Origin: Pseudomonadota bacterium
GTDB taxonomy: Bacteria > Bdellovibrionota_B > Oligoflexia > Silvanigrellales > Silvanigrellaceae
Direction of reading: 5' to 3'
NCBI GenBank assembly: GCA_039799905.1
Contig: JBDLRP010000036.1
Location: 90,017-154,016, forward strand
DNA: 64,000 nt
Made by a program: the position numbers and the translations under genes. Of the stretch, positions 23,907 through 54,563 are shown one piece after another; within the stretch, counting starts at the first letter, position 1; each line of letters starts with the position of its first letter. The notes beneath the pieces are model-generated. The model did no database searches. It worked only from the letters and a program-made list of their open reading frames with translations, and was not told the origin of the DNA.

Positions 23907-25364
23907 ATGAGGCGGTTTTTTGGAAATGGCGCAGTTTTCTCGGTTTTTTTTGCGCTTAGTTTGTTTGGCTGCGTTTCAACAAGTTCATTGCCGGGCACTC
24001 GGGCACCTTCCCTGGTCTCAACTCAAGACACCAAGATGAATCCCGCTCAACGGAATTCTCCGCCTCCGCCTCCGCCTCCGTCCTCGGGATCACTTGGGGG
24101 CGCCGTGACAGAAGGGGTTTGCCCAGAGGGTGCTGAGTTTCAGAAATCGCCCCGCAGCTGTGTCACCCGGGGCGGGTTTATTCTGGGGCCTTTCCCAATT
24201 GAGCTTCAGGAATTGTGCCGCGATCTGTTCCCGTCGGAAGCTAGTATCTGTGTGCAGAAGCAGGATTGGCCGGTCGAATTTCTCTCGAAATTTGCTGAAG
24301 TCTTGAAGAATCAGTGTCCGATCGGAACAGTGCAGATGCCGATTGCTGGGTGCCTTTCATCGGGCATGGTGTACGGACCTTTCACACTTGCCCAAGTCGG
24401 CGCGTGTCGGAGAAAATTGCCTTCTCATTCCGAATATCAGTGCGATCAAATGGCTTGGTCGGAGGAACTTTTCAAGAGTCTCCTCAATCCCGCCGGCGAT
24501 GAGATCAAAGTGGTGAATGTTGCTCCGGAGAAAGCTGATACCAAACAGGAAAAAATTGAAGTGAAAACGGACGATAAGAAACCGGCAGCCGTTGATCTGA
24601 CGGAAGAAAACAAGAAGGCCGCTGAAGGGAAAGATGAAAGTAAGAAAACCGCTGTTGAAAAGTCAGCTGCGGCTGCAGAAAAATTGCCTGGTTTGCCTGG
24701 TAATGCTGCTCAAGAGATAAGTGAAAGAGCGCTCAAGGCGCCCACTTACTGCATCTACAGTTGGGACGAACGGCCGGGGACAGCCGACTTCACAACACAA
24801 AACAGGCGGCTCCAGTCGCTGCGGAAGTCAGCAACCTACTTTGTGGACAGAAGAGAGTCTGAATCTTTGCTGCGCAGCAAAGAATTTCAAAACATGGACA
24901 CTTGTTCCCGCGCCCGCTTTCTTAAAAAGTGTTTTCAACGCGTGATCCTTGAAAGCGATTCACCGGCGGCGCAGGCTTTCCGAGCGTGGTCGTTGGGCAG
25001 AGTTCGTCCTGTGGAAGCGCATATGGCTTTCGTGATGAAAGAAACGCGTTTGGGGCTTTGGCCTGATGATTGTTGGAACGGAAGGTGTAAAGGTGTTGGC
25101 ATTGCCAAAGTTGCAACTGCACGCACACCTGCAGGGCGAACAGTCTTCGACACAGACCCGCTCTGGCACGGAATTACACACAACATAATGACAAATTTGG
25201 AATTCAGCCTGCGCAATATTGCAGACAAGACAAACGCTGGCGCAACCGACCTGTATGCACTCGCCTTTCTCTTCAATGGAAAAGCACGGACGCAGGAACG
25301 CTATGCGCTTGATGTGGACCGCTACTACAAAGAGTTGCTCGCCTGTAATCTTGATGAGCGATGA
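23907..25364 (+). CDS. Lipoprotein with tandem Cys/GPF modules and C-terminal lytic transglycosylase (SLT)-like domain
   Basis: Lipobox LFGC; poly-Pro linker; two CPxG..C..GPF..C..C..W units; K/E linker; MAFVMKET, GIAKV, NIMTNLEFS, AFLFNG, RYALDVDRYY resemble SLT motifs. Confidence 0.65.
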   Translation: MRRFFGNGAVFSVFFALSLFGCVSTSSLPGTRAPSLVSTQDTKMNPAQRNSPPPPPPPSSGSLGGAVTEGVCPEGAEFQKSPRSCVTRGGFILGPFPIELQELCRDLFPSEASICVQKQDWPVEFLSKFAEVLKNQCPIGTVQMPIAGCLSSGMVYGPFTLAQVGACRRKLPSHSEYQCDQMAWSEELFKSLLNPAGDEIKVVNVAPEKADTKQEKIEVKTDDKKPAAVDLTEENKKAAEGKDESKKTAVEKSAAAAEKLPGLPGNAAQEISERALKAPTYCIYSWDERPGTADFTTQNRRLQSLRKSATYFVDRRESESLLRSKEFQNMDTCSRARFLKKCFQRVILESDSPAAQAFRAWSLGRVRPVEAHMAFVMKETRLGLWPDDCWNGRCKGVGIAKVATARTPAGRTVFDTDPLWHGITHNIMTNLEFSLRNIADKTNAGATDLYALAFLFNGKARTQERYALDVDRYYKELLACNLDER

Positions 25365-25366
25365 TT

Positions 25367-25696
25367 TCAGGCCGCGCTGGGCGGTGGATCTTCTCCGGTG
25401 TCTTTAATCCGGAGAGATGTTTGACGCATTCCGTCGATTGTCTCGCGTGGAACTTGTTCCCAACGATACAACACGCCGGGACGGCCTTTGCACCAAAACT
25501 GCAGGCCCACCGATGTAACTGAGTACTTATCGAAAACGACTACACGGCTGGTTTGGTCGGCAAGCTTGAGGATCAGTCTTCGATCCTGAAGGCGCACCGA
25601 CAGAACTCGGTCGTGTTTCGAACCCTCAAGCCAAAGCAGCGTGCAAGGTGTTTCGCACAGCGTTTTCAGCTTCTGGGTCAAGAAAAAATCAGGCAT
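25367..25696 (-). CDS. Hypothetical protein (109 aa)
   Basis: GGAGG RBS before ATG; fills the gap between neighbours. Confidence 0.65.
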   Translation of the reverse strand: MPDFFLTQKLKTLCETPCTLLWLEGSKHDRVLSVRLQDRRLILKLADQTSRVVVFDKYSVTSVGLQFWCKGRPGVLYRWEQVPRETIDGMRQTSLRIKDTGEDPPPSAA

Positions 25697-25837
25697 AGGG
25701 AGCCCTCCATAGCATAGACGTTGCGCATCCTTGCGCCACGCGACCCCACAACCTCTAAAAGCCGAGGAGTCATTGAAGCTATCGGAGTTTTCGGGTCAGC
25801 TTGAGCGCGAGATCTTTCCGAGGTGTCGGAAAAAAAC

Positions 25838-53220: not shown

Positions 53221-53266
53221 AAAGCAAACGATTGCAAGAGCGGGGTGACCCGCAAATTCCAAAAAT

Positions 53267-53301
53267 AAAAAAGACGGCCGCAGACGCGTGCCGTCTTTTT
53301 T
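53267..53301 (+). terminator. Intrinsic terminator after aspA
   Basis: AAAAAAGACGGC-N11-GCCGTCTTTTTT. Confidence 0.85.
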
Positions 53302-53489
53302 CTTAACCCGCCAGAATCGACGACCTTTCGTACTTATTGTTGTGATTGGTGCATTTTTTTGCCCAGTCAAGCAAAGGACGCTTGGGTTTTTTGCCCTAAA
53401 TTTCCCCGTAAGTTGATCCTCAGAGCATCGAAAAAACGCGAATAAGTCCATTCAAAATGGGCTTTCTCACAAAAAGAGGGGGTCGATTG

Positions 53490-54563
53490 ATGAAGCGCAT
53501 CCTTTCGTTGGTTTTTCTTGCCGCTGCCGTCGTCGGGTGCGGTCGTTTCGAGCCGCAGTTGACGTCCGACGGGCAGCAGTTGTCCGATAAGCAAAGCATT
53601 GCAAATGGAGCCGCCAGCACAGGCGATCCGTTGAGGCAAAATACCTCAGGCTTGGCGCGTGAATCGTCGTTTCCTGCAGGTGTCCCCAATGCAGCCTCGC
53701 AGGTTACAGCGGGTGCGAAAATGACTCCAGATCAGATCTTTTGTCCATCCGGCAGCTGGTACTCACCCAGCGAAAAAATGTGTGTGACTGAAACTCAGGC
53801 CATTGGTCCATTCACGCGAGCTATGGTGGAGCTCTGCAAAAAATACGGCGGAGGCAACGCTGCATGCGAAGGTGCGCGGTGGGAGAGGTCCTTTGCAGCC
53901 CGCCTCAGGCTCGACGGGCAGTGTCCGCGTGGCGCATCTTTTGATTCTGGTCGCTTGGCGTGCTTGGAGGGCAAGGAAGCCTATGGACCTTTCAAGGTGA
54001 GAGATGTTGAAGAATGCCGGCGCAAAGGCGGTGGTCCGGCATGCGAGTCCATGCGCTGGAGTGCATCCATCATAGCGGTGCGCGCACGCGGCGGAACGGC
54101 GAACAAAAAGTTGTTTGATTTTTATTCTGTGAGAACGAACTACAACTCGGTGTTTTCGGATGTGCTGAAGTTTTATCCCGCGGGCCGCAGCAATGGCTGC
54201 GTCGCATTCATGAGCACAGCTCTGCGCAGGTCGGGAACCGCAGTGCCGGTGTCTGAATATATCAACGGGGAGTCCGTTTCGTTGGTCACAAAACCCTTCG
54301 CTCGCTATCTGACCGAGCGGCTGGGCTGGACCAAGATCACTTCTGCAAACAATTTGCAGCCCGGTGATGTTGTCCTGACGGAAGACGATGCACGCTACCC
54401 AAGTTATCCTGCTCATACATACATGTTCTATGGCTGGTCGAACCAGCGGGCCGGTATTGGCTGGGTGATTGATAATCAAGATTTCATTCACGAGCGCAAT
54501 ATCTTTGGCTACGGTACGTACAACTTTACGCCGTTTGCCTATGCCCTGAGGTCGCCTGATTGA
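53490..54563 (+). CDS. Lipoprotein with tandem Cys/GPF modules and papain-like (NlpC/P60/CHAP-like) amidase domain
   Basis: Lipobox VVGC; two CPxG..C..GPF..C..C..W units; NGCVAFMSTAL (Cys), LQPGDVV, PAHTYMF (His), VIDNQ (Asp). Confidence 0.8.
   Translation: MKRILSLVFLAAAVVGCGRFEPQLTSDGQQLSDKQSIANGAASTGDPLRQNTSGLARESSFPAGVPNAASQVTAGAKMTPDQIFCPSGSWYSPSEKMCVTETQAIGPFTRAMVELCKKYGGGNAACEGARWERSFAARLRLDGQCPRGASFDSGRLACLEGKEAYGPFKVRDVEECRRKGGGPACESMRWSASIIAVRARGGTANKKLFDFYSVRTNYNSVFSDVLKFYPAGRSNGCVAFMSTALRRSGTAVPVSEYINGESVSLVTKPFARYLTERLGWTKITSANNLQPGDVVLTEDDARYPSYPAHTYMFYGWSNQRAGIGWVIDNQDFIHERNIFGYGTYNFTPFAYALRSPD

Follow-up and report, generated by a model that had tools for sequence, protein, structure and literature searches.

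An apparently unnamed paired cysteine module joined to cell-wall enzymes and other exported proteins of the Silvanigrellaceae and scattered bacterial lineages

Two predicted lipoprotein genes lie about 30 kb apart in a 64,000-nucleotide stretch of Silvanigrellaceae DNA (GenBank assembly GCA_039799905.1, contig JBDLRP010000036.1, positions 90,017 to 154,016; hereafter the window). Their products, proteins A and B, share a paired cysteine-rich module, and the question raised by this locus is what the module is and what it does for the proteins that carry it. An earlier note on this DNA had described two copies of a CPxG..C..GPF..C..C..W motif in each protein and proposed a disulfide-bonded targeting or trafficking module that defines a modular family of cell-wall hydrolases. 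All four copies, two in A and two in B, were recovered by pattern matching with positions and motif spacing unchanged (Table 1). In this genome the pattern matched nine times among 35,456 six-frame open reading frames (ORFs) and not once in 40 per-ORF shuffles. The module comprises a pair of repeats of about 57 amino acids, about 115 residues in all, with eight near-invariant cysteines (four per repeat) at gaps of about 12, 17 and 8 residues. A lipobox-like motif upstream of the module was confirmed in both proteins, with Cys22 as its cysteine in A and Cys17 in B. Significant alignment between A and B was confined to the module (31% identity over 119 amino acids, E 2e-11), in agreement with the view that the two are otherwise unrelated. 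No similarity was found between the A and B module sequences as DNA, the best local match being 14 nucleotides, which argues for old domain shuffling rather than recent duplication.

Judged from its sequences, the module would represent a real and apparently unnamed domain family, of a functional kind already known. No Pfam family covers it, CBM_14 reaching the hairpin only; NCBIfam models, TIGR04201 among them, matched none of 76 module sequences (E up to 0.05), PHROGs gave no family for the same number, and PDB sequences and the ESM Atlas yielded nothing usable. The sole PDB-sequence match of the 76-row profile, 21nr (E 0.0026), was rejected as chance, its stretches having independent E-values of about 140 each and covering the Cys4-Trp segment only, as were two further weak matches (E 0.23 and 0.64). 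A full-text literature search, mostly outside subscription journals, returned no description of the domain. The anticipated absence of a named family therefore holds for Pfam, NCBIfam, PHROG and PDB sequences.

Known cell-wall-binding domains form a small set, mostly from Gram-positive bacteria and phages. The module resembles LysM, SH3b, SPOR and PG_binding_1, which are likewise small and non-catalytic, occur in tandem copies at either terminus behind flexible linkers, and are shuffled among M23, amidase, lysozyme, NlpC and L,D-transpeptidase domains. Like members of this accessory class it is found joined, at one end or the other, to many peptidoglycan enzymes of unrelated kinds, and paralogues dispense with it. 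It differs from them in its eight cysteines with predicted disulfides, its mixed hairpin-and-helix repeat, the lack of any sequence match to them (no Pfam match; hhalign against a small SH3 profile, E 0.62) and in not having been found in phage or plasmid collections; its wall binding is a property that we infer. On these grounds we lean towards the view that the module is a new disulfide-bonded cell-wall-binding accessory domain that would act as LysM or SH3b do. Following export, its cysteines would be oxidised by way of DsbB or VKOR, both of which the genome encodes. Each repeat is predicted to form a beta-hairpin closed by Cys1-Cys2, the GPF segment, a helix-loop closed by Cys3-Cys4, the Trp and a helix, and the two repeats would pack pseudo-symmetrically into one domain of about 115 residues. 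That domain would bind a wall polymer, either glycan or stem peptide and most likely peptidoglycan, perhaps at the repeat interface as described for the pseudo-symmetric tandem SH3b repeats of Ply500 (CBD500), which bind a wall glycopolymer there (PMC8179006). Binding would hold the attached enzyme at its substrate and raise its local concentration.

A hidden Markov model (HMM) built from the module copies and iterated on the ORFs of the genome until convergence identified six module proteins. Each has a single tandem pair, and in the C21 protein the first repeat is weak (independent E-value 0.03). Four carry the pair at the N-terminal end and two at the C-terminal end; the partners are SLT-like (A), NlpC/P60-like (B and a paralogue, C20:4108), 3D, NodB deacetylase and transglutaminase-elicitor domains. 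The catalytic domains of A and B each recur in two module-less paralogues; since the same domains occur without it in these four proteins, the module would be an accessory add-on.

A profile of these six pairs was then searched against 1.84 billion cluster representatives, and 277 protein clusters carried the module at E up to 0.001; cluster-level analyses concern the best 150 of the 277. Pfam scanning of 149 of these 150 representatives (P0001, a near copy of B, was entered as unnamed, and CBM_14 matches to the module were set aside) gave a named partner domain in 93. Strict peptidoglycan enzymes accounted for 39 (M23, GH25, 3D, Amidase_2/3, GH73, SLT, YkuD, S13, VanY, NlpC and phage lysozyme), NodB deacetylases for 11, a C39_2 peptidase only for 15 and other domains for 28. 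The wall-enzyme share is 39/93 by the strict count and 65/93 when NodB and C39, the latter presumably a wall peptidase, are included. Searches assigned 23 of the 57 unnamed clusters, 14 as B-type NlpC, three as distant B-like, four as YkuD-like and one each as NodB-like and A-type. Partners of a similar kind came from two other scans, of 51 proteins of family genomes (YkuD, GH108, amidases, M23, CAP, C1 and GHL10) and of 50 proteins of named genomes (C39, M23, NodB and beta-lactamase). Altogether its partner domains, unrelated to one another, number more than 15, with the module at either chain end and behind flexible linkers; among the 150 representatives it is N-terminal in 75, C-terminal in 43 and internal in 12, the other 20 being short, and export signals were detected in 116 by a rough test. 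Module-only lipoproteins also exist (L133, P0028 and P0072).

For comparison, 40 random 20-kb tiles supplied 82 of the 301 roughly predicted lipoproteins of the genome, of which one of 1,875 amino acids was dropped and 81 were scanned. Named domains were present in 35, with strict wall enzymes in six of the 35 and NodB in one. The odds ratio for wall enzymes in module clusters relative to this control was 3.5 by the strict and 9.3 by the broad count, the control being a single genome with some false lipoproteins and the clusters being kin, so that p-values overstate. Peptidoglycan-acting partners are in excess on module proteins, which is an enrichment and not a clean test. The expectation that the module would be fused mostly to wall hydrolases agrees with the broad count; a modular hydrolase family, as first proposed, stands in that the partners are mostly wall enzymes and falls in that it is not confined to hydrolases. 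A trafficking role fits poorly with a module that may be N-terminal, internal or C-terminal and present in two or four copies.

The 28 other partners include transglutaminase-elicitor (10) and trypsin (four) domains and also S8, C1, GDSL, CAP, GHL10, DUF4127, PGA_cap and others; two of the 28 clusters could be wall-related, one having SH3 only and one being beta-lactamase-like. These non-wall exported enzymes would be expected if the module were a general surface-docking or sorting domain that binds a protein, an outer-membrane component or a vesicle or secretion partner of the producing cell, wall enzymes dominating only as the commonest exported cargo of these lineages. PGA_cap, GHL10, FAD_oxidored, trypsin and S8 are ordinary lipoprotein families of this genome, the module co-occurs with SH3_3 and PG_binding_1, and it is expanded in single lineages to as many as 17 matches per genome, all of which would suit such a role. 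We nevertheless consider it unlikely, as wall enzymes are enriched over the lipoprotein control and as sorting tags of the MYXO-CTERM type are described as single and C-terminal (PMC3325183), whereas the module varies in position and copy number. The module also occurs singly in cyanobacteria and Gammaproteobacteria, each of which would need the receptor.

Several observations weigh against a wall-binding role. About 30% of the named partners (28/93) are not wall enzymes, the share falls to 39/93 if C39 and NodB are left out, and FAD oxidoreductase partners occur in 4 of the 50 named-genome proteins. Most wall enzymes of this genome lack the module (8 SLT genes, 2 YkuD, S13, M74 and 3D). In each of the four genomes in which the junction was examined, the paralogue C20:4108 lacks a signal peptide of its own. 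By the rough test, 34 of the 150 representatives, some of them fragments, have no signal. The module often stands beside a known wall-binding domain (SH3_3 in P0024, P0055, P0062, L103 and L175; PG_binding_1 in L213), where a second wall binder would not be needed. It shows no conserved net charge (median 0, range -10 to +18), and its best-conserved non-cysteine residues (G, P, F, M and W) may be structural.

In an AlphaFold model of protein A (82-row alignment, 418 residues), the predicted local distance difference test score (pLDDT) was 89-96 for the module pair, mostly above 80 for the C-terminal domain and below 50 for the linker, with a predicted template modelling score (pTM) of 0.51; high module pLDDT beside this whole-chain value fits independent domains. 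The modelled repeat combines a hairpin and, at GPF, a short strand with two to three helices, around Cys3 and Cys4 and past the Trp, and a compact pseudo-symmetric fold is predicted for the module. Fold searches used this same model, and their result rows were taken by its C-terminal domain. Mean-field coevolution over 337 pairs (effective 287; numbering from window position 53736) ranked the inter-repeat pair T27-A67 first (z 9.0) and T27-E78, also inter-repeat, fourth (z 6.9), the equivalent intra-repeat pairs K35-E45 and R95-E104 ranking between them; this suggests that the two repeats pack into one domain. Prediction of a complex from the split repeats scored 0.21 against a mark of 0.32, which is no answer and was used neither way. 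The repeats are not interchangeable: the first has Met four residues after the Phe (116/120), and the second has Glu or Asp two residues after Cys2 (128/148) and Arg before the Trp (105/124).

Among sequences without Cys2 of repeat 1, 14 of 15 also lack Cys1, and 16 others lack Cys1 alone. This joint loss points to a Cys1-Cys2 disulfide and, by elimination, to Cys3-Cys4, and four disulfides are thus predicted in the module; the disulfide-bonded character first proposed draws support from the co-loss and from the export signals. The eight near-invariant cysteines, and the one paralogue without an export signal of its own, could also be accommodated by a metal- or iron-sulfur-binding module serving as sensor or redox switch. 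We regard that as most improbable, given that CxxC or CxxCH spacing is absent, that Cys1 and Cys2 are lost as a pair and that most carriers have export signals.

Two disulfide-rich repeats placed before a peptidoglycan-degrading enzyme are also known from the secreted proteins rusticalin and placozoan lysozyme PLys (PMC6339383, PMC12855814). Those repeats are eukaryotic, beta-defensin-like and 33-34 amino acids long, with the spacing Cx6Cx6-7Cx8Cx7CC (PMC6339383), whereas the repeat described here is bacterial, C-terminal as well as N-terminal, and has a spacing of about Cx12Cx17Cx8C with GPF and Trp; the difference in cysteine spacing led to its rejection as a repeat of that type. In PLys the N-terminal domain is described as stabilising the enzyme at a cost in activity and as being removed on maturation (PMC12855814), and the paired rusticalin repeats have been suggested to act in regulation (PMC6339383). 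A pro-domain of this sort, stabilising or regulatory, would keep a dangerous wall enzyme folded or quiet until cleaved off. For the module this seems improbable: a single domain would need to act as inhibitor of over 15 unrelated folds, from the N- as well as the C-terminal side, the long disordered linkers and low pTM suggest no fixed contact with the enzyme, and some proteins consist of the module only.

The hairpin has a counterpart in the CBM14/peritrophin-A family (PF01607; the chitin-binding domain of CHIT1, Avr4 and tachycitin), which shares a disulfide hairpin of the form CPxG...C whose cysteines enclose 12 residues, and weak Pfam CBM_14 matches recur there at about profile positions 25-49 of 53. 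When tested against the whole profile, the module of protein B reached 21.2 bits for a cut-off of 22.1, over positions 31-49 only; the whole-protein cut-off was attained only by summing in the multi-repeat proteins P0026 (25.7 bits), P0028 (25.0) and P0029 (22.1), no stretch passing alone. In CHIT1 the last CBM14 disulfide is Cys450-Cys463 and the chitin-binding residue Trp465 (PMC4844120), and in Avr4 the chitin-binding aromatic is Tyr103, two residues past the hairpin cysteine. The corresponding position of the module holds D, S, N, T, Q or K in 101 of 120 first repeats and E, D, S, A, Q or N in 145 of 148 second repeats. The match covers only about 20 residues, the module has four cysteines per repeat, and the CBM14 fold is a distorted beta-sandwich where the module model has one hairpin and is otherwise helical. 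Identification as CBM14 was therefore rejected on whole-profile match, binding aromatic and fold. The module might still use its CBM14-like hairpin to bind a glycan other than peptidoglycan (chitin, an exopolysaccharide or a sheath polymer) and so anchor enzymes outside the wall; the repeated weak matches, the spacing shared with CHIT1, partners such as NodB deacetylases, GHL10 and PGA_cap, and the finding that every Pfam-named cyanobacterial copy is a NodB-like fusion are in keeping with this. With Asp, Glu, Ser, Asn or Thr at the chitin-binding position, a helical remainder to the repeat and no chitinase among the named partners, such a role is hard to credit, slightly less so than that of a pro-domain. 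Another disulfide-rich repeat of exported myxobacterial proteins, TIGR04201 of TraA, occurs in long runs with a proposed stalk function and is not tied to wall enzymes (PMC3325183).

Fold searches placed the C-terminal domain of protein A in a lysozyme-like fold, as in family 1 lytic transglycosylases, and so upheld the SLT-like fold first assigned to it. Its presumed catalytic residue, assigned by motif position rather than residue-level superposition, is E in 13, Q in 10 and K in 7 of 30 orthologues, and the Gln of GxxQ, which we take to be a family 1 motif, is Lys or Arg in 29 of the 30; both residues are kept in the two module-less paralogues of the domain. It thereby departs from the family 1 enzymes (MltF, MltC, MltE and Slt70) and from GH23/GH124, as it does in giving no Pfam SLT match. 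The term hydrolase, as used in the earlier note, is doubtful for protein A because the presumed catalytic Glu is retained in fewer than half of the orthologues. Protein A is likely a wall-tethered SLT-fold protein with activity lost or being lost. The module was said to lie between a lipobox linker and the catalytic domain; it does so in both proteins, with the amendment that A has another linker, long and of low complexity (pLDDT under 50), behind the module.

The papain-like Cys-His-Asp domain ascribed to protein B was corroborated. The three residues are invariant in 16 of 16 aligned relatives, in papain-like order, and the L.PGD segment is kept in B-type domains; both features are shared with NlpC/P60 superfamily amidases (Amidase_5, Tae4 and NLPC_P60), from which B differs in being a lipoprotein with the cysteine module and in the weakness of its profile matches. 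At E up to 0.1, 9 of the 16 B-type members matched NLPC_P60, four Amidase_5 and three Tae4, all weakly, with a best E of 5.9e-5 and E 0.072 for protein B itself. On the wall-binding reading, protein B is likely a wall-tethered peptidoglycan amidase or endopeptidase. One RNA run contained a 154-nucleotide contig at the 3' end of gene B, which does not establish expression.

Table 1. Positions in the window of proteins A and B, their module repeats and their C-terminal domains.
Feature	Coordinates	Strand	Evidence
Protein A, 485-aa (amino acid) predicted lipoprotein: lipobox LFGC, Pro/Ser linker, paired Cys module, long acidic/Lys-rich linker, SLT/lysozyme-fold domain with degenerate active site	23907..25364	+	
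Module repeat 1 of protein A (CPxG..C..GPF..C..C..W)	24120..24269	+	pattern match
Module repeat 2 of protein A	24315..24458	+	pattern match
SLT/lysozyme-like domain of protein A; presumed catalytic Glu379 at 25041-25043	24744..25361	+	fold searches, orthologue alignment
Protein B, 357-aa predicted lipoprotein: lipobox VVGC, linker, paired Cys module, NlpC/P60-superfamily domain	53490..54563	+	
Module repeat 1 of protein B	53742..53882	+	pattern match
Module repeat 2 of protein B	53922..54059	+	pattern match
Papain-like NlpC/P60-superfamily domain of protein B; Cys237 (54198), His309 (54414), Asp328 (54471)	54090..54560	+	alignment, weak profile matches

The best 150 of the 277 clusters have two repeats in 141 cases, four in eight and three in one, an N-terminal fragment, the search profile having been built from pairs and hence favouring pairs. 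To call the pair obligate would be too strong, as single or half repeats exist (L059, L063, L029, L005 and L215). Half repeats with the GPF helix, Cys3, Cys4 and Trp and without the CPxG hairpin are fused to SH3_3, NlpC-like or GH108 domains (L005:3597-4451, minus strand, G000:C34:130596-131453; L063, L215 and L029).

The distribution of the module is patchy, taking in Oligoflexia, myxobacteria, Roseateles/Inhella, marine Gammaproteobacteria and Oscillatoriales. In the phylum of this genome it was found in 25 of 131 genomes; the counts are 12 of 12 for other genomes of the genus, 19 of 32 for other genomes of the family, and five genomes in two other families. Within the family it is expanded, to between 2 and 17 matches per genome, and it was absent from the 13 genomes of one genus, g5, which appears to be that of the cultured Silvanigrella group; cultured Silvanigrella and Fluviispira are listed as non-predatory (PMC11656739). 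A scan of species genomes with a degenerate DNA pattern gave at least 122 matching stretches, of which 115 passed the HMM; the passing stretches among the matches listed came from Silvanigrellaceae, Polyangiaceae, Kofleriaceae and other myxobacteria, Roseateles/Pelomonas/Inhella, Rheinheimera, Pseudoalteromonas, Bowmanella, Microbulbifer, Reinekea and Oscillatoriales cyanobacteria. The seven that failed, including Enhygromyxa, Nannocystis, Paceibacterota, Clostridia and Alphaproteobacteria rows, were dropped, as was one viral match, and a weak match in a relative (G038, L064) proved to be an unrelated CPxG repeat. Outside the home family the module is rare, in at least 7 of 301 Myxococcota, at least 3 of 251 cyanobacteria and at least 7 of 251 Roseateles-family genomes, the seed genome being counted in each and the candidates scored per group numbering no more than 15 to 18. 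Cultured carriers include Inhella proteolytica, Rheinheimera, Microbulbifer and Lyngbya. A module tree (105 rows, 116 columns, quick search, eight starred branches) required 48 label changes, where the minimum is 11 and shuffling gave a mean of 73.6; it is too unresolved to count fusions, and its starred branches force only one to two origins per group. Two module proteins, P0156 and P0165, have C-terminal hydrophobic tails and Cys-rich spacers like those of membrane- or glycosylphosphatidylinositol-anchored proteins and are possibly of eukaryotic origin.

The wall that the module would bind could be that of its own cell or of another, and the lipid anchors fit both. Inhella and Roseateles isolates are reported to inhibit cyanobacteria (PMC10033687), and the module may be a peptidoglycan-binding domain of new fold that aims a lytic battery at the walls of other cells, its expansion in the Silvanigrellaceae reflecting a bacterivorous or cyanolytic lifestyle. 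We give this no more than a small chance, about that of a docking or sorting domain. Few myxobacteria carry the module and some cyanobacteria do, which weighs against a prey-wall target, and a general tie to predation was dismissed as unsupported on the same counts.

Several further features of the module proteins were recorded. The ATG of C20:4108 (L001:2459-4032; G000:C20:3458-5031) overlaps the stop codon of the gene upstream (ATGA), which encodes a secreted, Cys-rich protein of about 200 amino acids with a Pro-rich, linker-like tail and a Lys-stop end, as in all four genomes read. The junction could mean that a leaderless protein is made by coupled translation, or that the two are fused by a -1 frameshift. 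AAA precedes such ATGA-type overlaps more often than any other codon in this genome (42/235). In one SLT-like paralogue (L209:1362-2375, minus strand; G000:C1:122861-123988) the slot of the module is taken by a second unnamed accessory domain, of about 75 amino acids with two cysteines, which occurs in seven proteins of the genome and in four copies in the NodB-module protein L043. The copy in C1:123988 had no Pfam match and only E 0.029 by hhalign against an SH3 profile; the domain may be SH3-like. A domain of about 250 amino acids without a Pfam match lies between module and C39 peptidase in Beta- and Gammaproteobacteria (P0024, P0029, P0098, P0167 and P0169; L093, L095, L110, L135, L137 and L141) and by eye looks like a glycosidase barrel.

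Directly behind gene B, at 54581-55285 (+), is an unnamed predicted lipoprotein gene with no Pfam match, found in the same place in eight loci of relatives, two of them one contig; its product could be a partner or immunity protein, but the upstream aspartase-like gene is equally syntenic. Convergent on gene A is a predicted lipoprotein gene (25838-28006, minus strand) with a weak permuted papain-like domain (Peptidase_C92, E 7.7e-5), syntenic with gene A in six relatives. The ORF at 21639-22853 (+) begins like a lipoprotein and has an ADP-ribosyltransferase domain at its C-terminal end (PF01129, E 3e-16), and a relative of its N-terminal part adjoins a module gene in L096. Between genes A and B are a gene for a 1,273-amino-acid predicted lipoprotein with a Met-zincin motif (DUF4953; 40433-44254, plus strand) and mreB (46744-47928, minus strand).

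The module offers an annotation handle for about 277 protein clusters in which its region has no name. If it is indeed a wall binder, a disulfide-bonded domain of Gram-negative lineages, carried on nearly every class of peptidoglycan enzyme, would add a new probe or targeting part to those available and might have a new fold. The module can serve, too, as a marker for asking whether the uncultured Silvanigrellaceae clade attacks other cells. Were the walls of prey its target, expansion in uncultured Silvanigrellaceae together with absence from g5 would mark an unrecognised bacterivorous or cyanolytic lifestyle, and horizontal transfer would have brought the domain to myxobacteria, Roseateles/Inhella, marine Gammaproteobacteria and certain filamentous cyanobacteria.

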